This document shows positions 10,073 to 63,012 of a stretch of 64,000 nucleotides of DNA, in pieces; within the stretch, counting starts at the first letter, position 1; every line of letters starts with the position of its first letter. This stretch comes from Clostridia bacterium (lineage in GTDB: Bacteria; Bacillota; Clostridia; Oscillospirales; UBA644), in contig JAFRTE010000031.1 of NCBI GenBank assembly GCA_017427285.1, positions 64,117 to 128,116 of the forward strand, in the 5' to 3' direction. Both the position numbers and the translations under genes were made by a program. The notes under the pieces were generated by a model. That model was given only the letters and a program-made list of their open reading frames with translations. It searched no databases and had not been told where the DNA came from.

Positions 10073-10161
10073 GGAGAGGTATCGAAGTGGTCATAACGGG
10101 GCTGACTCGAAATCAGTTTGCGTGAAAGCGCACATGGGTTCGAATCCCATCCTCTCCGCCA
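10073..10161 (+). tRNA. tRNA-Ser (anticodon CGA)
   Basis: Acceptor GGAGAGG/CCTCTCC, anticodon loop CTCGAAA, long variable arm, T-loop TTCGAAT, encoded CCA. Confidence 0.9.
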
Positions 10162-10387: not shown

Positions 10388-10645
10388 ATGGCTATGATCA
10401 GAATTTTACTTTCCATCAAGCTGGGCGAGCTTAGATGGAGCCAAGCTGATCTCGCGCGGGCTACTGGAATACGGCCATCTACCATAAATGAGTATTACCA
10501 TGAAATAGCCGAGCGAGTCAATCTGGAGCATCTTGATCTGATATGCGAAGCGCTCGGGTGCGAATTGTCTGAGATAATCGTAAGGCAACCGTCGCCTATA
10601 CGAAAGACCAAGTCAAGGACCGGGCACGGGCATGATGATGGATAG
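10388..10645 (+). CDS. XRE-family HTH regulator
   Basis: 85 aa with WSQADLARATGIRPSTINEY HTH. AAAGGAG SD. Confidence 0.75.
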   Translation: MAMIRILLSIKLGELRWSQADLARATGIRPSTINEYYHEIAERVNLEHLDLICEALGCELSEIIVRQPSPIRKTKSRTGHGHDDG

Positions 10646-10663
10646 CTCTCTCCTTACATGAGA

Positions 10664-10698
10664 GACCGAAGCATTATTATTGTGCTTCGGTCTTTTTG
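10664..10698. terminator. terminator between convergent XRE genes
   Basis: GACCGAAGC / GCTTCGGTC stem followed by TTTTT. Confidence 0.6.
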
Positions 10699-10700
10699 TA

Positions 10701-10928
10701 TCATTTGAATTCTTCGCCAGTTTCGACATCAATGAATTTTATTTCCACCTTGTAGCCGAGCCCGGAAGCGATCTTTTCCAGTTCGCTCAATCGGAAGTCG
10801 TCCCTCTTCATCTTGTTATTCAGATTCTGCGGTGTATCTCCGATCCGCGCGGCGAGATCCCTCTCAGAGAGATTCCCCCTCTTTACGCGCATGATCCTTA
10901 TCTTTTCTGCCATCGACATTATACTCAT
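10701..10928 (-). CDS. XRE-family HTH regulator
   Basis: 75 aa with LSERDLAARIGDTPQNLNNKM HTH. The true start may be the 4th or 6th codon (ATG), because the SD abuts the first ATG. Confidence 0.75.
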   Translation of the reverse strand: MSIMSMAEKIRIMRVKRGNLSERDLAARIGDTPQNLNNKMKRDDFRLSELEKIASGLGYKVEIKFIDVETGEEFK

Positions 10929-10943
10929 CTCCCTTCGCGTATT

Positions 10944-11051
10944 ATTCTACACGAAAAAGTGTATTTTGTCAACACCTAAATTGAAAACATCAAAAAATTT
11001 TTGATGTTTTATCAAAAAACACTTGACAAAATACACTTTATAGTGTATAAT
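10944..11051. promoter_or_regulatory. symmetric divergent promoter/operator region
   Basis: The minus promoter is TTGACA (10972-10967), 17 nt, TAGAAT (10949-10944). The plus promoter is TTGACA (11023-11028), 17 nt, TATAAT (11046-11051). Both -35 boxes sit in a 15-nt perfect inverted repeat (10958-10972 / 11023-11037) flanking a 19-nt perfect palindrome (10988-11006). Confidence 0.65.
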
Positions 11052-11098
11052 ATACTTGTAAGGCAGAGGGAAAACCTCTTACGAAAGGAAGTGAGGAA

Positions 11099-11218
11099 AT
11101 GGACGAGATGAACGTAACACAGGCATTGCTCAAAGCAATCCTGGAACTCATCGAAAAGTGCGAAACGCTCGAAGAACTCCGCGAAAGCGTGAAGCGAATC
11201 ATGAACGATGAGAAATAA
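11099..11218 (+). CDS. 39-aa helical peptide (below track threshold)
   Basis: ATG preceded by AAAGGAAGTGAGG. Sequence MDEMNVTQALLKAILELIEKCETLEELRESVKRIMNDEK. It is the first ORF after the plus promoter. Confidence 0.4.
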   Translation: MDEMNVTQALLKAILELIEKCETLEELRESVKRIMNDEK

Positions 11219-11346
11219 AAAAGTGAGTGACCGCCGACCAAGCTAACCACTCACCCACCGCGAACGGTGTACCGGGGGGAGCCTTACTCCCCCGGACACC
11301 TTGATTATAACACAGTAAGGCAAAAAAATCAAGGGGGATAGCAAAA
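11219..11346 (+). promoter_or_regulatory. structured 5' leader of the amidoligase gene
   Basis: Three hairpins (11223-11254, 11266-11300, 11299-11334). The last one sequesters the SD. There is 8-nt perfect loop-loop complementarity (11281-11288 with 11314-11321). Confidence 0.5.
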
Positions 11347-12264
11347 ATGACTACCATTCAGAATCAGAATTTCGGCGTTGAAATCGAATTGACGGGGATC
11401 ACCCGCAGGGACGCGGCACGGGTCATCGCGGAATACTACGGAACGACCGCGGCATTTGACGGCAGCTACTACGACATCTACACGGCTACGGACAGCAAGG
11501 GCAGAAAGTGGAAAGCGATGAGCGACGGCAGCATCCGCACCACGAGAAAAGTCAACGGACGTCAGATAGACGCGGACCGCTCGTACAGTTGCGAGGTCGT
11601 CACCCCGATCCTCCAGTACGATGACATCGAAGATCTGCAGGAGATCATCCGGAAGCTCGTCGCTGCCGGCGCGGTTGCAAATTCATCCTGCGGCATTCAC
11701 GTCCATGTGGACGGTGCGAATCACACCCCGCAGAGTTTGACGCGGCTGATCAACTTCGCCATCGGCAGACAGGACCTCTTCTACGAAGCGCTGCAGATCG
11801 GCGACAGAGCGAATCACTGGTGTCACAAGATTTCCCGCCCGCTTCTGAAAGCGATGCGCCACGACAAGGACATGACCAGAACGAGCATGGAAACGATCTG
11901 GTATAGCAGAGCGAACGACGGCTACACCGGAGGCATAAGCCACGAGCATTACAATTCCACGAGATACCACGGCATCAACCTTCACGCTTTCTTCACGAAG
12001 GGCACGGTCGAATTCCGGCTCTTCAATGGAACGACGCACGCCGGCAAGATTAAAGCCTATATCCAGTTTTGCCTGGCGATGAGCGCATGGGCGATCACCG
12101 CTCCCGATAAGATGTACTACAAATCCTGCGCAACGTACACCGCGAAGCAGAAAGAAACGCTGATGCTGAATGTGCTGACGCGCCGCCTCGGAATGACCGG
12201 CAAAGAGTTCAAGACCGCCAGATACCATTTGACGAGGACGTTCACGGAAGCGGCTGCGGCGTGA
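11347..12264 (+). CDS. glutamine-synthetase-fold amidoligase (Amidoligase_2-like)
   Basis: 305 aa with FGVEIELTG, CEVVTPIL, SCGIHVHVDG and GTVEFRLFNGT segments, as in the putative amidoligase family. Confidence 0.7.
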   Translation: MTTIQNQNFGVEIELTGITRRDAARVIAEYYGTTAAFDGSYYDIYTATDSKGRKWKAMSDGSIRTTRKVNGRQIDADRSYSCEVVTPILQYDDIEDLQEIIRKLVAAGAVANSSCGIHVHVDGANHTPQSLTRLINFAIGRQDLFYEALQIGDRANHWCHKISRPLLKAMRHDKDMTRTSMETIWYSRANDGYTGGISHEHYNSTRYHGINLHAFFTKGTVEFRLFNGTTHAGKIKAYIQFCLAMSAWAITAPDKMYYKSCATYTAKQKETLMLNVLTRRLGMTGKEFKTARYHLTRTFTEAAAA

Positions 12265-12308
12265 GGCAAGTCCTGACCTATCGGGCATACGGGGAGAAAG
12301 GAAACGAC

Positions 12309-12740
12309 ATGAGCAAACTATACCTTGCCTATGGAAGCAATCTCAACAAGGCACAGATGCGGATGCGCTGCCCGGATGCTATCGCCATAGGAACGACAGA
12401 AATCAAAGACTATCGGCTTCTCTTCCGCGGTCATCCCCTTGCCGCGGTAGCAACGATCGAAAAGGAAAAAGGATCTTCCGTACCGGTCGCGCTGTGGTCG
12501 ATCTCCGAAGCGGACGAGCGGGCGCTTGACAGATACGAGGGCTTCCCCCGGCTCTATATCAAAAAGTGGCTGACCGTTCCGTTCGGCGGTCGGAACGTGA
12601 AAGCGATGGCGTACATCATGACTGACGGAAGACCTCTCGGACGCCCGAGCGCCGCATACCTCGGGACGATCCGGCAAGGGTACGCTGACTTCAAGATCAC
12701 CTATCAGTACGAACTGACACGCGCGGCGATGGGCGAATAG
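12309..12740 (+). CDS. AIG2 / gamma-glutamylcyclotransferase-like protein
   Basis: YLAYGSNLNKAQMRMRCP and LDRYEGFPRLY motifs. ATG at 12309 with AAAGGA SD. The alternative GTG at 12261 overlaps the amidoligase stop. Confidence 0.75.
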   Translation: MSKLYLAYGSNLNKAQMRMRCPDAIAIGTTEIKDYRLLFRGHPLAAVATIEKEKGSSVPVALWSISEADERALDRYEGFPRLYIKKWLTVPFGGRNVKAMAYIMTDGRPLGRPSAAYLGTIRQGYADFKITYQYELTRAAMGE

Positions 12741-12871: not shown

Positions 12872-13288
12872 TTATTCGGTTGTTTCCGGCACTTCGTTCT
12901 CGCCGTCTGTGATCTCGTATTCCGCCGCAGGATCGAATTCGATTTCTTCTTCCTTATTTTCGTCGTCCTCGCTATGGAACGCGTCATTAAAAGATGCGAG
13001 AGCGGCTTCGATCAGGACACGCATTTCAAGTTCAGTACATTCGATACCTTTTTCCGCAAGCATTTCTTTCGCCGCGGAGAGGGCTACTTCGAGTTTCTCG
13101 GGACCGTGGAGATCCTTGTAAACCTGCTCGACAAACTGAACGCAGGACTTTGCGACAGCTTTCTTTGTTTTGTCGTTCAGATACTTCTTGCACAGATTCT
13201 TCAACACGATGCCGATATATCCGGCAATCGCGGTGAGAATGGTGTAAAGGATCGTGGTACCGTATTCGGAAATAAACTGCTGAAACAT
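12872..13288 (-). CDS. holin (LL-H-type)
   Basis: 138 aa with an N-terminal TM helix, then FVEQVYKDLHGPEKLEVAL...LIEAALASFN and an acidic tail. It lies immediately downstream of the endolysin. Confidence 0.7.
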   Translation of the reverse strand: MFQQFISEYGTTILYTILTAIAGYIGIVLKNLCKKYLNDKTKKAVAKSCVQFVEQVYKDLHGPEKLEVALSAAKEMLAEKGIECTELEMRVLIEAALASFNDAFHSEDDENKEEEIEFDPAAEYEITDGENEVPETTE

Positions 13289-13300
13289 GATTATACCTCC

Positions 13301-14509
13301 TTAAATCTTCTGCATATCGGACGCCCATACACGTCCGGTATAAACTTTTTTGGTCGGCTCGGTGCTTACGAGGTACACCTTGCCATTCTGTTCAATCTGG
13401 CGAACGTAGAGCGTGGCAACGCGCACCCACGACGGCATCCCTACGCCGTTGTAATACTTGGTGACACCCGCTTTGCATTTAACCTTGTCGCCGACCTTGA
13501 TGACATCGGTCGTTGCGCCGCCTGATACCACCGTCCCGCCTGTGGTCGTGATGTATGTGGGAAAACCCGCTGCTTTGAGTTTCTTTTCCATCGCTACAGC
13601 GTAATCGCGTTTGGAATAGGCGCCGACCTGTACGCGGTAGAGCTCGCCGGACTTTTTGAGGATTGCGTCAAATCCCGCCGCTTTTACTTTTTCGAGCTGC
13701 GCGTCGGCGTTTGTCTTCACCTTATAGGCGCCGGTCTGGACATAGTACAGAGTAGTCGGCTGCGCCGGAGGCTCGGGGACTACGGGCGCGTTCAGAGCGT
13801 CAAGGTATTTCTTGACAAGCGCCTTGAAAGTTTTCCAGTTGCCGAGCGCGATTGAATGAGAAGTGCTCCCGAAGATATACGACGGGCACCACTTCCTTCC
13901 GGAGATGAGATTGGTGCACTGCTCGTCCGGATCGGCAAACTTCTTCCCGGCGCTCTTGTTTACCCAGTAGGTATGAGTGACGAGCTTGCTGATCGGAAGG
14001 TTATACTTCCAGAGCAGCCACGCCGCGATCTTCGCGCCGTTGTCTTTCGCTTTGGCGTCGTGATCGGCGCTTTCACCCATGATGATCTCCATCGAGAGGG
14101 ACGTCATATTGCCACCGTCAGCCACGGAGCCGTCGCCGGAATGCCAGGACACTTCGGCAGATCCTTCGGGATCGTTCGGGCAGAGACCCGTTCCGGCTTT
14201 GAGATTCTGCCACGCGCATTTGTCGTCGACATAAAAATGCACCCGAGCGCTCCCCATGTTCTCGTTATAGGTTGCGCGGGTGTACTGTTCGCCGTCGTCG
14301 TTCTCGGTGCCGTTGGTGTCGCCGGTGTTATGGATCGTGACCGACTTCGGCCCGCCAGCGATCTTCTGATTCTTCTTGTAAAGAGACCCGGCACCGCTGA
14401 ATCCGGCATTCTTTGCTTTGGCGTCGTCTTTCCATACCGTCCCGTCCGGGATGATCTTCTCGTTCACGGTGACGCCGTTCATTTTGTATGTGTAGTTCGG
14501 GGTAAGCAT
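13301..14509 (-). CDS. endolysin: N-acetylmuramoyl-L-alanine amidase + SPOR + C-terminal SH3-like wall-binding module
   Basis: Amidase_2-type segments (VTIHNTG, SWHSGDG, THTYW). SPOR-like YYVQTGAYKV...YRVQVGAY. The C-terminal ~65 aa are shared with the protein at 22640..24454. Confidence 0.85.
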   Translation of the reverse strand: MLTPNYTYKMNGVTVNEKIIPDGTVWKDDAKAKNAGFSGAGSLYKKNQKIAGGPKSVTIHNTGDTNGTENDDGEQYTRATYNENMGSARVHFYVDDKCAWQNLKAGTGLCPNDPEGSAEVSWHSGDGSVADGGNMTSLSMEIIMGESADHDAKAKDNGAKIAAWLLWKYNLPISKLVTHTYWVNKSAGKKFADPDEQCTNLISGRKWCPSYIFGSTSHSIALGNWKTFKALVKKYLDALNAPVVPEPPAQPTTLYYVQTGAYKVKTNADAQLEKVKAAGFDAILKKSGELYRVQVGAYSKRDYAVAMEKKLKAAGFPTYITTTGGTVVSGGATTDVIKVGDKVKCKAGVTKYYNGVGMPSWVRVATLYVRQIEQNGKVYLVSTEPTKKVYTGRVWASDMQKI

Positions 14510-14827: not shown

Positions 14828-14856
14828 AAAAAACCCCGCTGATTTCTCAGTCGGGG
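14828..14856 (-). terminator. terminator overlapping the RT stop codon
   Basis: Sense CCCCGACTGA-GAAA-TCAGCGGGG followed by TTTTTT. Confidence 0.55.
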
Positions 14857-15950
14857 TAGTTGGTATTATCTTCGGCGTAGTGCCGGACGAGGACGAAATC
14901 TTCGAGGACTTTCTTTCTGAACGCATCGCAGTCACAATGTTTCATGAGACCGAGATAACTTTGTATCACGCTCAGGCAGTAGTCGAGGTCGAGTTCGCCT
15001 GTTGAGTAGTGCTCCATCACATATCGCAGATGCTGTTTCATGTATAGCGACGATGATCGGCGTATCTGTATTCGATCCGGGAACACCCGCCGTCCGACGA
15101 ATTCCGGTCCGGCGTCATAAGGCATTATTGCTGTTTTTGAATTGAGATTCAGACCGAGCCGGTCGTACAAAAACGATTCCGCCCGTTCGTGAATCTCATG
15201 CGCTTGATCTTTGCTCGGCGCCAATGCGATCATGTCGTCCATGTTCCGCATGTAGTACGGGGCGCGAAGCTCGCGCTTGATGTAATGATCGAGCGGTGTC
15301 AGAACGACGTTGCCGGTCATCTGAGATATCAGACTGCCGACCTGCATTCCGATTCCGGGGATCCGCTCACAGTCGGTCACGTTTTGAGCATCGAGAGGTA
15401 AACCGAATGCGCGACCGTCACACTTGATCGCTTGCTCGTAAAACCACATCATATCGGGATCGTTGATAGGTTTGCCCAAATATTCAAGCTGAACTTCTAC
15501 GGGAATGCGGAAGAAGAACTTTTTGACGTCCATCTTCAAAAGCCACCAGTTCTCCTTTTTATGTCGAATCAGGCGCATCCAGTATTGCAGTTGCTTCGTT
15601 GCCCGAACGGTACCCATGCCATCCACAGAGCCGTAAGAATGCTCATAGAATGATTTTCTGTATATCGGCCACATGACATTATAGGCGGCGCAGTTCACGA
15701 CGCGATTCTCAAACGGCATCACCGTAATGATGCGCTTTTTCGGGAAATACTCTATAAATTCATGCAGGTTTTTGACCTCATACGTTTTCCAGATAAGGTG
15801 ATTTTGCGAGTTGATCAGATTTTCCTCAAGATTCGCTGTATAGGCAAGCACTTCGTTCCTGTATCGCTTATTACGGCGAGCAAGAAGATAACCGCCATAC
15901 AAGTTTTCAAAATCAATGAATCTTTCAAAAACGTGTTCGTGCTTTTCCAT
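14847..15950 (-). CDS. DGR reverse transcriptase
   Basis: RT motifs including VGSLISQMTGN and YYMRNMDDM. Start taken at the ATG at 15950 (MEKHEHVF); the track ORF extends to a TTG at 16031. Confidence 0.88.
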   Translation of the reverse strand: MEKHEHVFERFIDFENLYGGYLLARRNKRYRNEVLAYTANLEENLINSQNHLIWKTYEVKNLHEFIEYFPKKRIITVMPFENRVVNCAAYNVMWPIYRKSFYEHSYGSVDGMGTVRATKQLQYWMRLIRHKKENWWLLKMDVKKFFFRIPVEVQLEYLGKPINDPDMMWFYEQAIKCDGRAFGLPLDAQNVTDCERIPGIGMQVGSLISQMTGNVVLTPLDHYIKRELRAPYYMRNMDDMIALAPSKDQAHEIHERAESFLYDRLGLNLNSKTAIMPYDAGPEFVGRRVFPDRIQIRRSSSLYMKQHLRYVMEHYSTGELDLDYCLSVIQSYLGLMKHCDCDAFRKKVLEDFVLVRHYAEDNTNYPD

Positions 15951-16103
15951 ATACAGCTCCTCCCGAGGGTTGCGCTTAACAGCTGAGAGCGGTTTACGCA
16001 ACTGATCATTTCTACGCCTGCGCATAGGCAAGCGAAAGGAGCAGATCCCTTATACCCTTGCTCTGATTGTATCCCGTGGGCGTACAATATCTGACGGTGG
16101 GGG

Positions 16104-40171: not shown

Positions 40172-40778
40172 GATTCAACCGCTCGCGTACCCTTTCCTGA
40201 TATTTCGCCGCGTCGTATTTGTAGTTTGCGAGTTCGTTCATGAGCTTGTAGATCTCACGCTCGATGATATCCGATGCCTCCGCGGAATCTTTGGCAGACA
40301 TCACATCTACGGCAAGTCTGCCCGGCAGGGCGAGCAGTCCGCTTCTGATCGTGTAGATCAGATCTTCGGTCATCGCCGCCACGTCTTCCGATCGGTGCAT
40401 CTTCCCGAGGCGTTCCTGCGCGTCCAGCGTCGCAACCGTCGCCTTTGCCTTTTTGAAAGCCGCCTCTGCTTCGCGGCGCGTTGCCTCGGTCTTTTGTTCC
40501 TTATCGTCTCTTTCTTCCGCTCTGGCGTCCAACATCTCGATGTATGCTCGCATCGTTTCCGTCAGTTCATACAGAGCGCCGTGCGGAGTTTGCTTTTTCG
40601 TGAGGATGCCCTGATTTGTCAACTGCCCGATCCACTGATTAGACTTTCCCGTCATCCGGCAGACATCGGCAGTTTTCAGATACACCGGCGTCCCCGCCTG
40701 CATCACATAAACCGCGCCCTCCTTGATTTCCGCTATCGCTTTTTCTTTCGCCACAGCAAACCGCTCCTTTCGCTGCAT
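40131..40778 (-). CDS. terminase small subunit (Nu1-like HTH)
   Basis: Start moved to the ATG at 40778 (MQRKERF), because the track ORF's N-terminus reads through the tRNA. It has an HTH (LKTADVCRMTGKSNQWIGQL) and overlaps the TerL start. Confidence 0.65.
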   Translation of the reverse strand: MQRKERFAVAKEKAIAEIKEGAVYVMQAGTPVYLKTADVCRMTGKSNQWIGQLTNQGILTKKQTPHGALYELTETMRAYIEMLDARAEERDDKEQKTEATRREAEAAFKKAKATVATLDAQERLGKMHRSEDVAAMTEDLIYTIRSGLLALPGRLAVDVMSAKDSAEASDIIEREIYKLMNELANYKYDAAKYQERVRERLNLEAADFADDDEEG

Positions 40779-40852
40779 GGAGCTGACGGAGGGAGTCGAA
40801 CCCACAACCCCGGGATTACAAATCTCGTGCTCTGCCATTGAGCCACGTCAGC
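40778..40852 (-). tRNA. tRNA-Thr(UGU)-like gene inside the prophage
   Basis: Sense GCTGACG..GCTCAATGGCAGAGC..CGAGA-TTTGTAA-TCCCG..GTGGG-TTCGACT-CCCTC-CGTCAGC-T-CCA. The acceptor stem is perfect, with one A-C mismatch in the anticodon stem and one T-T mismatch in the T stem. Confidence 0.6.
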
Positions 40853-62649: not shown

Positions 62650-63012
62650 ATGACTCTTGGGAAGATAGTGGAGGAATACCTAAATCTGCACAATATGTCA
62701 CAAAGAAGTTTTGCGAAAAAGTGCGGCATGTCATCCGGCTATATTTCCATGATAGTCAATGGGATAAATCCGCGTTCCAATACTCCAATAGTCCCAACAC
62801 TAAAATCTTTGAACGGTATCGCAAGAGGGATGAGCATTTCTCTTGACGAATTGCTTTCAAAGATGGATGATTCGGTTGTAGAGCTCGATTTCGGTAAATC
62901 GGACGGCTCTGATAGAGTAGCAGAATTCACGAGACTTTTCTCGCAGCTGACGGATGATCAGCAGATGATGATTATTGCTTCCATAAAGGGGATATTGGCA
63001 AATGACAAGTAG
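62650..63012 (+). CDS. CI-like XRE HTH repressor
   Basis: 120 aa. MSQRSFAKKCGMSSGYISMIVNG. It is divergent from the cro-like gene. Confidence 0.8.
   Translation: MTLGKIVEEYLNLHNMSQRSFAKKCGMSSGYISMIVNGINPRSNTPIVPTLKSLNGIARGMSISLDELLSKMDDSVVELDFGKSDGSDRVAEFTRLFSQLTDDQQMMIIASIKGILANDK

Follow-up and report, generated by a model that had tools for sequence, protein, structure and literature searches.

The three hairpins that fill the 128-nt leader (11219-11346) of an amidoligase gene in our 64-kb window (that is, the whole stretch of DNA analysed) probably mark a small antisense RNA gene together with the leader of its target, the two forming a conserved phage regulatory cassette that precedes many accessory genes. 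Support in silico comes from a predicted promoter, a predicted terminator, strand-specific structure, the pairing of hairpin 3 with the SD, independence from the cargo and a defined boundary of the cassette.

Hairpin structure of the leader

All the coordinates that a sequence-only reading had given for three strong hairpins in this leader agreed with ours. Hairpin 1 (11223-11254) pairs GTGAGTG at 11223-11229 with CACTCAC at 11248-11254. Hairpin 2 (11266-11300) has a GC-rich stem, composed of GGTGT/ACACC and CCGGGGGG/TCCCCCGG with a bulged A11271, and the loop AGCCTTAC. Hairpin 3 (11299-11334, plus strand; inverted repeat I6) joins CCTTGATT (11299-11306) to AATCAAGG (11327-11334) across a 20-nt loop, the 3' arm overlapping the SD, AAGGGGGA (11331-11338), of a gene whose ATG is at 11347. 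As had been pointed out, hairpins 2 and 3 have nucleotides 11299-11300 in common, and the loops of the two are perfectly complementary over 8 nt (GCCTTACT, 11281-11288, in hairpin 2 and AGTAAGGC, 11314-11321, in hairpin 3). The same reading had passed over a small middle hairpin at 11256-11269, an A-run 5' of hairpin 1 and a predicted opposite-strand promoter within hairpin 3.

The minimum-energy fold of 11219-11360 calculated with RNAfold, a check that had been proposed, contained all three hairpins (-43.4 kcal/mol, z = -2.93), and one of 200 shuffled sequences folded as well. Two perfect 8-mer inverted repeats within 128 nt were obtained in ~1% of 5000 mononucleotide shuffles. Because the element is found repeatedly (in 101 IMG/VR stretches retrieved by a DNA-pattern search, and in several genera) with compensatory changes in its stems, the structure of the leader is, on this comparison, more than chance.

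Conservation and covariation had also been named as a check. The helices proved to be conserved and the stems of hairpins 1 and 2 compensatory, but for hairpin 3 no compensatory change was found in a fixed-register alignment. A per-sequence arm analysis of hairpin 1 gave 21 distinct arm pairs across loci, all perfectly complementary; on the plus strand, these variants always had the A-run on the 5' side and never a U-run on the 3' side. In hairpin 2, compensatory changes were seen at five pairs around an invariant loop, AGCCUUAC (11280-11287). The strand test for this hairpin was neutral to mixed, with plus-favouring G·U pairs at loci L001, L027 and L081, and consequently hairpin 2 probably folds on both strands; we propose that it serves as a recognition stem-loop on the sense and the antisense RNAs alike.

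The evidence for the pairing of hairpin 3 comes only from register-shifted, divergent loci. The 5' arm is complementary to whichever cargo SD follows, both in the majority type and across 4-5 divergent lineages, the arm/SD pairs of the changed lineages being CCTCCATT/AATGGAGG, CCTCCT/AGGAGG, CTCCT/AGGAG and ACCCCT/AGGGGT. Judged from these replacements, hairpin 3 behaves on the plus strand as an SD-masking helix whose 5' arm tracks the SD of each cargo, so that the proposed SD sequestration is borne out even in lineages where both partners have changed. The leader is in this sense equipped with an SD-sequestering expression platform, as expected of a cis-regulatory leader. When modelled, the mean unpaired probability of the SD was 0.37 in the free leader versus 0.45 in the antisense-bound one, with no consistent direction (17 leaders lower, 23 higher).

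A terminator scan detected no plus-strand intrinsic terminator in the leader. Hairpin 1 is not followed by a plus-strand U-tract, since AAACACCC or CCACCCC comes next, and hairpin 2 was discarded as a plus-strand terminator because its U-rich tail, UUGAUUAU, is not conserved and is missing in L104 and L118. A search of the whole window against Rfam 15 at gathering thresholds returned three tRNAs only. An E-value scan of both strands of 10900-11500 gave no match inside 11219-11346, in agreement with the earlier remark that no known riboswitch class could be recognized; the weak matches that it did give, to eukaryotic miRNA/snoRNA families and to RT-11, all lay in 10900-11093.

A predicted antisense RNA on the minus strand

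As far as prediction and comparison go, the leading signals in hairpins 1 and 3 are those of a small RNA predicted on the opposite strand, hairpin 1 being its intrinsic terminator and hairpin 3 holding its sigma-70-type promoter. This putative cis-antisense RNA (~80 nt, 11215..11297, minus strand) was delineated by a covariance model (R1), by compensatory changes and by G·U asymmetry. It would consist of SL1, the minus-strand complement of hairpin 2 with the loop GUAAGGCU; SL2, the middle hairpin (11269..11256); and SL3, the complement of hairpin 1 (11254..11223), predicted to act as an intrinsic terminator with the U-tract that follows it (11222..11215). Its overlap with the small ORF located upstream of the leader is confined to the stop codon and the 3' region, leaving out the body of the ORF and its SD.

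Model R1 found a single match in the window, at 11296..11215 on the minus strand (60.9 bits, E = 2.7e-16), and 53 matches in 57 sources. In the covariance-model alignment, which is itself fitted to the minus-strand model, 14 of 20 minus-strand pairs showed compensatory changes, and none of 500 shuffles reached any of five covariation measures. With RNAalifold, compensatory changes were seen at 10 of 13 minus-strand pairs. The MAFFT alignment of hairpin 1/SL3 was out of register; consequently, the per-sequence arm analysis and the covariance-model alignment were used in its place.

For the terminator and the middle hairpin, the G·U asymmetry favoured the minus strand, with 93 G·U against 19 A·C cells, the ratios by stem being 41:1 in SL2 and 50:13 in SL3. 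The terminator hairpin folded better on the minus strand in 39 of 40 variants, with a mean advantage of 6.1 kcal/mol that would partly be due to composition, a G/U-rich minus strand being expected to beat its C/A-rich complement. In the window alone, the fold z-scores of the two strands were alike (-3.67 for minus, -3.47 for plus).

The antisense promoter (11304..11332, minus strand) combines a -35 element TTGATT (11332..11327), a 17-nt spacer and a TG-extended -10 element TATAAT (11309..11304); like the terminator, it is a consensus prediction. Among 44 unique variants, TATAAT was present in 43, the TTG of the -35 in 43 and the 17-nt spacer in 42. The exception to the 43/44 counts was L113, where the scan chose another site, and the outlier L184 had a spacer of 14 nt and a weak U-tract. 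The promoter persists where the stem of hairpin 3 has changed register or broken (L104, L113/L115, L165, L133; also L118) and where the hairpin-3 loop motif and the cargo have been lost (L111, L116, L120). It is also retained in a set of loci anchored on the peptide, a set not biased by the RNA model.

A promoter of its own, an intrinsic terminator of its own and a conserved minus-strand structure are, in silico, the marks of a cis-antisense small RNA, and we infer that such an RNA is produced. The cis-regulatory leader originally proposed stands in part: the helices are conserved and hairpin 3 pairs with the SD, but the main signals of hairpins 1 and 3 belong to the opposite strand.

The predicted sense transcript, its repeated motif and its cargo

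Upstream of the leader lies a gene for a 75-aa HTH regulator of the Cro/C1 type (10701..10928, minus strand; Pfam HTH_26, E = 6e-4, with 20.5 bits falling short of the curated cutoff of 22 bits) that presumably represses the two divergent promoters. Its own promoter, found in a promoter scan, is TTGACA-17-TAGAAT (10972..10944, minus strand). The sense promoter P1 (plus strand; -35 at 11023-11028, -10 at 11046-11051) matches the consensus at 12 of 12 positions. The two are part of a mirror-image promoter/operator region (10943..11052, both strands) built on a 30-nt inverted repeat, 10943-10972 being 90% complementary to 11023-11052, and between the P1 hexamers there is a palindrome, ATACACT/AGTGTAT (11031-11048), a putative operator covered by inverted repeat I7.

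The predicted 5' end of the sense mRNA (11058..11082, plus strand) carries GUAAGGC (11058-11064), G11058 being 7 nt past the -10 of P1, and then a hairpin in which AGAGG (11065-11069) pairs with CCUCU (11075-11079). Compensatory variants of the inner stem (AGAGAT/ATCTCT, AAAGC/GCTTT, AGGGGC/GCCCCT, AGGGGA/TCCCCT) were found, with G·U pairs on the plus strand. At other loci, the sequence 5' of the -10 is unrelated, yet -35 and -10 elements are found at a fixed distance from GTAAGGC. Because cross-locus conservation begins at the predicted +1 while the operators differ between phages, the conserved unit is, by this comparison, the transcript.

The first gene of this transcript is a conserved small ORF (11099..11218, plus strand) for an acidic, helical peptide of 39 aa; across cassettes its length ranges from 37 to 47 aa, and there are two types of peptide, A and B. 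The ORF is under apparent purifying selection, with 13 synonymous and 2 nonsynonymous codon differences with respect to phage Castelnaud. The peptide (pI 4.6, GRAVY -0.41, highest 15-residue hydropathy 1.25) contains no hydrophobic segment and found no match in Pfam or PHROG.

GTAAGGC occurs four times in the 64-kb window, always within 10580-11321. Copy 1 (11058-11064, plus strand), at the predicted mRNA 5' end, had been missed by the sequence-only reading. It is complementary to the GCCTTAC of the hairpin-2 loop (11281-11287, plus strand), which is flanked on its other side by copy 2 (11315-11321, plus strand) in the loop of hairpin 3. TATAAC, located 5' of copy 2, was considered as the -10 of a second plus-strand promoter and, on inspection of the sequences by eye, rejected, as it has no -35 and lacks the final T in most loci. 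The GCCUUAC loop and both GUAAGGC copies are invariant in every locus that retains the motifs. Loop covariation among the three was absent from 26 genome loci and 80 viral loci, all peptide-anchored; none of the seven kissing-loop pairs ever varies, so that covariation has no power on the kissing loop. Since the three sequences never vary, a real three-site interaction is suggested, and a role for the triple motif is proposed. A simple cis-antisense model leaves such strict invariance of three 7-8-nt motifs unexplained, because sense and antisense strands remain complementary whatever their sequence.

As a whole, the unit spans ~290 nt. It opens at the predicted transcript start GTAAGGCAGAG, takes in the 37-47-aa ORF and the three hairpins, and closes with the SD site; it is present in >100 viral contigs and ~22 Clostridia genomes. 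Besides Flavonifractor and Angelakisella, it was found in several metagenome-assembled genomes of Oscillospiraceae and Clostridia. In the window, the cargo consists of the amidoligase (11347-12264, plus strand; Pfam PF12224, E = 2.5e-67) and a GGACT/AIG2-like gamma-glutamyl cyclotransferase (plus strand, from ATG 12306 or GTG 12261 to 12740; PF06094, E = 3.5e-12). However, at least 13 unrelated families of first genes stand behind the element in the first DNA-pattern set of ~100 viral loci, only two of which share the amidoligase with the window; two further genome loci also have it. Flavonifractor phages Chenonceau and Castelnaud carry the module without an amidoligase, and the amidoligase homologues of Faecalibacterium phage FP_Taranis and MT839305 are preceded by other sequence, with the element absent. 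On these comparisons, the element is independent of cargo identity and not amidoligase-specific, contrary to the leader or ligand switch dedicated to the amidoligase that had been envisaged.

When near-identical phages were compared, homology broke at the cargo start codon, stopping 57-78 nt past the hairpin-2 loop, about the cargo SD/start codon. Searches of the cargo genes against Pfam, PHROGs and PADLOC gave essentially no functional matches. No dedicated recombinase accompanies the module, the nearby serine integrase being the phage integrase. In L111, L116 and L120, the cargo and the hairpin-3 loop motif have been lost; the predicted small RNA is kept together with its promoter, as is the ORF, and the sense promoter is lost in two of the three.

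Proposed mechanism, alternatives and precedents

In the sense/antisense cassette that we favour, P1 would be under the control of a phage-specific HTH repressor acting at palindromic operators. The sense mRNA would start at GUAAGGCAGAG, bear the 5' hairpin, encode the 37-47-aa acidic protein and continue through the three hairpins into the accessory genes, here those for the amidoligase and the gamma-glutamyl cyclotransferase. From inside hairpin 3, a constitutive-looking promoter would fire towards the small ORF and yield the ~80-nt RNA, with the hairpin-2 complement as its first stem-loop and, as its terminator, the hairpin-1 complement plus a U-tract opposite the A-run. The two RNAs may first make contact through their complementary 8-nt loops (GUAAGGCU in the antisense RNA, AGCCUUAC in the mRNA), with full pairing over the stretch that separates the small ORF from the cargo coming next. 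Pairing would presumably lower cargo expression, through an RNase III cleavage that severs the cargo from the protective 5' hairpin, through a preference for the SD-masking hairpin 3, or through a combination of the two. P1 and the antisense promoter are convergent and ~250 bp apart, so that transcriptional interference might add to the effect. Both GUAAGGC copies of the mRNA have the sequence of the antisense loop and may pair intramolecularly with the hairpin-2 loop, in competition with the antisense RNA.

A more daring version, which we put forward only tentatively, is that the cassette is a generic RNA 'expression socket' of gut Clostridia phages, in which the antisense RNA and the two built-in GUAAGGC loop mimics compete for GCCUUAC and thereby set a threshold or a timer for translation of the plugged-in gene. 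So conceived, and with the same hesitation, the socket would be a previously undescribed system.

Several of these observations could also be accommodated by a purely sense-strand cis-regulatory leader, a generalized form of the original proposal, in which hairpins 2 and 3 kiss via GCCUUAC/GUAAGGC and set the masking of the SD for any cargo. This might be a ligand-independent, temperature- or protein-dependent switch, with the 5' GUAAGGC possibly competing and the opposite-strand promoter and terminator being fortuitous or secondary. The way hairpin 3 follows the cargo SD in divergent lineages, the invariance of three motifs amid varying stems, the computed stability of the loop-loop duplexes (-11 to -12.5 kcal/mol) and the plus-favouring G·U pairs of hairpin 2 in some lineages all agree with it, as does the decay of the hairpin-3 loop motif upon cargo loss (L111, L116, L120), which would point to a cargo-linked, sense-strand role. 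We nonetheless deem it unlikely: it does not account for the A-run 5' of hairpin 1, for the invariant ATTATA and TTG-complement at a fixed 17-nt spacing within the 'loop', for the retention of the promoter in loci with a shifted or broken hairpin 3 (L165, L133), or for the minus-favouring G·U asymmetry (41:1 in the middle hairpin, 50:13 in hairpin 1), and its kissing pairs receive no support from covariation. A lower probability still attaches to a core unit made of the small ORF and a convergent antisense RNA, akin to a type I toxin-antitoxin or self-regulating, with the cargo riding on read-through. The layout is indeed convergent, the antisense 3' end abuts the stop codon of an ORF under purifying selection, and the small RNA, promoter and ORF outlive the cargo and the hairpin-3 loop motif (L111, L116, L120). 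However, the peptide, acidic, hydrophilic and devoid of a membrane segment, is unlike known Firmicutes type I toxins, the antisense RNA meets only the stop codon and 3' region and covers neither the ORF nor its SD, there is no conserved plus-strand terminator between ORF and cargo, and hairpin 3 follows the SD of the cargo.

It is very improbable that the element works at the DNA level, with GTAAGGCAGAG and its inverted copy serving as operators for both convergent promoters or as a site-specific recombination site for cargo exchange, and with the hairpins as incidental palindromes. The motif does occupy +1 to +11 of P1 and part of the antisense-promoter spacer, the GTAAGGC copies of the window are clustered (all four in 10580-11321), and the swapped cargo begins abruptly, on its left side, where the leader ends. 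Yet stems that covary freely around invariant loops are a signature of RNA structure, not of a protein-binding palindrome; a boundary at the start codon is what homologous recombination within a conserved leader, together with functional selection, would be expected to leave; and no dedicated recombinase travels with the module. Finally, we give next to no credence to a metabolite riboswitch of the amidoligase/GGCT operon that would sense glutamate or gamma-glutamyl compounds. All that speaks for it is the structured appearance of the leader and where it lies in the window, and the comparative data effectively refute it: the same leader precedes unrelated gene families (at least 13), the amidoligase homologues of FP_Taranis and MT839305 do without it, there is no multi-helix junction and no conserved unpaired core apart from the loop motifs, and Rfam gave no match. 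From the unrelated cargo families and the amidoligase homologues devoid of the element, such a riboswitch is therefore very unlikely.

The proposed sense/antisense cassette has parallels among known systems. The immI region of P22 reportedly comprises mnt, arc, the sar antisense RNA and ant. In P22, mnt is divergently transcribed and sar covers the ant ribosome-binding site. Like immI, our locus is an independently regulated, highly variable temperate-phage locus in which a promoter under repressor control, presumed here, leads to a small first gene and then to the regulated gene, with a small antisense RNA, predicted here, that has its own promoter and is directed against the region between two cistrons. 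No sequence or Rfam relationship links the two, and the promoter of the RNA predicted here overlaps the SD region, the transcript starting ~35 nt upstream of the SD. Further differences from P22 are a first gene for an acidic 37-47-aa protein instead of an Arc-type repressor, a cargo that is apparently no antirepressor, Gram-positive Clostridia as hosts, and the triple GUAAGGC/GCCUUAC motif, which has no counterpart there.

The P22 immI ant moron has been described as an independently regulated, highly variable temperate-phage insertion, with 'ten types in sixteen genomes' (PMC2629481), and OOP/cII and P22 sar, the latter within the variable 'ant moron', are precedents for phage antisense RNAs (PMC5415839, PMC2629481). 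Lambda OOP is a ~77-nt cis-encoded antisense RNA that has its own promoter and intrinsic terminator and acts via RNase III cleavage (PMC5415839). The RNA predicted here resembles OOP in being short and cis-antisense, with its own promoter and intrinsic terminator and complementarity to the 3' end of the upstream gene; RNase III cleavage, the mode of action of OOP, would apply to our cassette by analogy. However, OOP overlaps the cII coding sequence, whereas here the ORF overlap is limited to the stop codon, and an SD-masking hairpin and a repeated loop motif are not described for OOP.

In the c4 RNA of P1/P7 and the CI RNA of P4 (Rfam C4, RF01695), a regulator stem-loop lies between two complementary target copies, the downstream one beside a ribosome-binding site, and the regulators are released by processing of the sense transcript. 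The order GUAAGGC, GCCUUAC, GUAAGGC is reminiscent of this, with 11058-11064 and 11315-11321 flanking 11281-11287 and the downstream copy near the ribosome-binding site. Unlike in c4 and CI, the strongest signals here predict a separate antisense transcript, and neither icd/ant nor the P4 alpha operon lies downstream; the C4 covariance model gave no match on either strand at E up to 10. In hok mRNA, long-range intramolecular pairing masks the antisense target (fold-back inhibition), a role like that proposed here for the GUAAGGC copies. As in hok/sok and the type I toxin-antitoxin systems of Firmicute prophages, a small ORF and a small antisense RNA, here a predicted one, converge; in contrast to them, the peptide is not hydrophobic and the sense transcript continues into the cargo genes.

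For the locus itself, the annotation is corrected in that the amidoligase/GGCT pair appears as one cargo among many, with no riboswitch dedicated to it. If our reading is true, a widespread, unannotated small-RNA family controls the accessory-gene slot of temperate phages of the human and animal gut, and would be a Gram-positive gut-phage counterpart of P22 sar and lambda OOP. Building the antisense promoter into the SD-masking hairpin would be an unusual arrangement, and the target RNA would carry copies of the recognition loop as decoys. Almost all the genes of the cargo region lack a known function, and the invariant ~130-nt element, as an exact start marker of this hypervariable region, could guide the mining of phage accessory genes. 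A constant cassette with cargo swapped at its 3' edge may thus provide a search beacon for accessory, anti-defence and lysogenic-conversion genes.

Position and fold of the hairpin region

A tRNA-Ser(CGA) gene (10073–10161, + strand) abuts the end of the prophage (10.2–64 kb of the window) and probably served as its integration site; another tRNA gene, tRNA-Thr(UGU) (40778–40852, –), lies inside the prophage. Early genes for RecT, a replisome organiser and ParB occupy 52–62 kb (–), followed by a CI-like HTH gene (62650–63012), and the integrase is probably past the right end of the window. The hairpin region is located at the prophage end, with the attachment site on one side and the lysis genes, holin (12872–13288, –) and endolysin (13301–14509, –), on the other. 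The order there is an HTH gene (10388–10645, +), a divergent HTH gene (10701–10928, –), a perfect sigma-70 promoter found by promoter scan (P1, 11023–11051), a 39-aa ORF (11099–11218), the 128-nt hairpin region (11219–11346), an amidoligase (PF12224, E = 2.5e-67) and a GGACT/AIG2 protein. An in-frame GTG of the GGACT gene at 12261, upstream of 12306, overlaps the amidoligase stop codon (12262–12264), and translational coupling of the two genes is possible.

On a 36-kb contig carrying another copy of the module (locus L014), we found a CI-like HTH gene, a serine integrase, an HTH gene, the module, ~2.4 kb of small genes, lysis genes (–), a reverse transcriptase (–) and a tail fibre. The module occupies the same position here as in the window: a slot beside the attachment site that classically holds accessory genes. 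The window also has a reverse transcriptase (RVT_1, 14847–16031, –) adjoining the lysis genes; its L014 and L036 counterparts lie at ~+5.0 to +6.3 kb relative to the module. A neighbouring 623-aa tail-fibre-like gene in related contigs makes a diversity-generating retroelement the probable identity.

Hairpins 1 (11223–11254), 2 (11266–11300) and 3 (11299–11334), whose coordinates in the sequence-only reading were all correct, constitute the minimum-energy fold (RNAfold, –43.4 kcal/mol, z = –2.93). The 8-nt complementarity claimed between loops 2 and 3 is likewise a perfect 8-mer, GCCTTACT/AGTAAGGC. An extra GTAAGGC at 11058–11064 is also complementary to the hairpin-2 loop, and the four occurrences of this heptamer in the 64-kb window all fall within 10580–11321. 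The fourth copy, GTAAGGCA at 10580–10587, lies inside the first HTH ORF, ~480 nt 5' of the module, and may be a chance occurrence: 11 of 100 shuffles reached three hits of this 8-mer in 64 kb.

Distribution of the module and its cargo

The leader had been proposed to belong to the amidoligase. In blastn searches against phage genomes, the amidoligase coding region matched Faecalibacterium phages (~68% identity) that lack the leader, while promoter, small ORF and hairpins matched the Flavonifractor phages Chenonceau and Castelnaud (74–77% identity), which lack the amidoligase. In FP_Taranis and MT839305 the amidoligase starts ~14 nt after a different gene. Judged by the refutation criterion that the sequence-only reading set for itself, the amidoligase-leader interpretation fails, although conservation of the helices is strong: the module precedes unrelated genes, and amidoligase homologues occur without it.

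An exact-pattern scan of IMG/VR returned 101 stretches with the element, and peptide-anchored scans gave 160 viral relatives and 26 loci in GTDB genomes (Flavonifractor plautii, Angelakisella massiliensis, Firmicutes CAG:170, and several Oscillospiraceae, Clostridia and 'Lachnospiraceae' metagenome-assembled genomes). At least 13 unrelated families are represented among the first genes behind hairpin 3, almost all without a match in Pfam, PHROG or PADLOC. Between near-identical phages, homology stops 57–78 nt past the hairpin-2 loop, near the SD and start codon of this cargo gene; the otherwise divergent phages of L008 and L003 have only ~130 nt spanning hairpins 2–3 in common.

Behind the variable first gene of L008, L009, L007 and L003, between +560 and +2700 relative to the hairpin-2 loop, lie conserved small genes arranged as an operon; they have no assigned function and are 85–99% identical between phages differing in the first gene. 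Examples are a 76-aa protein beginning MNKIRRKNLQAIIDRLEELKG and a 102-aa protein beginning MSRDWTPEELAAASS. FP_Taranis (590–885 of its locus, L130) shows an analogous architecture of unrelated sequence: a consensus promoter, a basic 32-aa small ORF, a minus-strand TTGACA-17-TAAAAT in the intergenic region behind it, an MKYADINRR cargo-family homologue (PHROG 38037) and the amidoligase. This suggests that the layout of small ORF, antisense promoter and cargo may be more general than the present module. Four degenerate copies (L111, L116, L117, L120) have lost the hairpin-3 loop motif and cargo, and L111 and L116 also the sense promoter; all retain the small ORF and small-RNA body, and all except L117 the small-RNA promoter. 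L117 and L120 both reside in one genome of Angelakisella massiliensis.

Sense transcript and predicted antisense RNA

P1 and the divergent HTH-gene promoter are mirror images in a 30-nt inverted repeat (90% complementary, 10943–11052), with an ATACAC...GTGTAT palindrome between the hexamers of both; P1 is therefore almost certainly repressor-controlled. A separate palindrome, perfect over 13 nt (AAAACATCAAAAA/TTTTTGATGTTTT), lies between them at 10984–11010. Across loci, the sequence 5' of the sense –10 is unrelated and the palindromic operators differ; the –35 and –10 keep a constant distance from GTAAGGC, and conservation starts at its first G, 7 nt past the –10. By this comparison, the conserved unit is the transcript. 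The hairpin following this GTAAGGC covaries across loci, with G·U pairs on the plus strand. The small ORF, which differs from that of Castelnaud by 13 synonymous codons and 2 nonsynonymous ones, is a real gene; its product is acidic, without a membrane segment, and two types of the peptide occur.

Five pairs of hairpin 2 show covariation, and hairpin 3, aligned in fixed register, showed no compensatory change. Nonetheless, the nucleotides directly 3' of hairpin 2 can pair with the SD of the following gene, whichever it is: CCTTGATT/AATCAAGG in most loci, CCTCCATT/AATGGAGG in L113, L115 and L165, CCTCCT/AGGAGG in L156, CTCCT/AGGAG in L118 and ACCCCT/AGGGGT in L104. The antisense RNA would not include the partner sequence, which is upstream of its –35, so this pairing is impossible there and points to an mRNA helix masking the SD. 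The SD sequestration previously ascribed to hairpin 3 thus gains support from divergent loci.

The promoter scan also revealed a minus-strand TTGATT-17-TGnTATAAT within hairpin 3. Of 44 unique variants, 43 have TATAAT as the –10, 42 a 17-nt spacer and 43 the TTG of the –35 (one exception in each count being L113, where the scan chose another site). This promoter is kept where the hairpin-3 stem is altered (L104, L118, L156), where it is shifted so that the –35 falls outside it (L113/L115, L165), where it is broken (L133), and after loss of loop motif and cargo (L111, L116, L120).

Hairpin 1 has the hallmarks of a minus-strand intrinsic terminator: its 21 distinct arm pairs are all perfectly complementary and, on the plus strand, an A-run always precedes it and a U-run never follows. 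In this region the minus-strand fold is the better one in 39 of the 40 variants; its mean advantage of 6.1 kcal/mol is inflated by G/U richness. The predicted antisense RNA (75–88 nt) would comprise SL1 (the hairpin-2 complement, loop GUAAGGCU), a small SL2 and the terminator SL3. Of the 13 pairs predicted by RNAalifold, 10 carry compensatory changes. A covariance model of this RNA (R1) gave a single match in the window (11296..11215, –; E = 2.7e-16) and 53 matches in 57 sources; in the alignment built on it, both partners had changed in 14 of 20 pairs, and on each of five measures all 500 shuffles fell short. G·U versus A·C cells numbered 41:1 in SL2, 50:13 in SL3 and 2:5 in SL1. The asymmetry argues that terminator and middle hairpin belong to the minus strand; hairpin 2/SL1 is strand-neutral, as expected if it folded in both RNAs.

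In L025 (IMGVR_UViG_2775506863_000006), an extra GTAAGGCAGAGG lies right before hairpin 2, in the linker from hairpin 1; the middle-hairpin loop of its predicted antisense RNA is thereby UGCCUUAC, complementary to the GUAAGGC motifs.

Proposed regulation

Of the sequence-only reading, the structured, conserved, SD-masking leader stands; its core, an amidoligase-specific element confined to one strand, does not. Comparative sequence evidence best supports a sense/antisense regulatory cassette of the same kind as P22 sar and lambda OOP (PMC5415839, PMC2629481). The repressor-controlled P1 would yield an mRNA for small ORF and cargo, and the convergent promoter inside hairpin 3 an RNA of ~80 nt pairing with the region between them. 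Cargo would presumably be down-regulated, whether because RNase III cleaves the mRNA, because hairpin 3 is stabilised or because the two promoters interfere with each other; in models of SD accessibility, the effect had no consistent direction.

In all loci retaining the motifs, neither the hairpin-2 loop nor either GUAAGGC copy varies, so the kissing pair shows no covariation. The loop–loop duplexes are stable (–10.7 to –12.5 kcal/mol). A cis-antisense pair is complementary whatever its loop sequence, so the frozen 8-mer suggests extra partners. Speculatively, the two GUAAGGC copies could act within the mRNA as decoys that capture the target loop, much as hok mRNA inhibits itself by folding back, or else be c4/CI-like target sites. 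On this comparative evidence, the element would be an undescribed family, with unusual features, of a regulatory type already known from phages.
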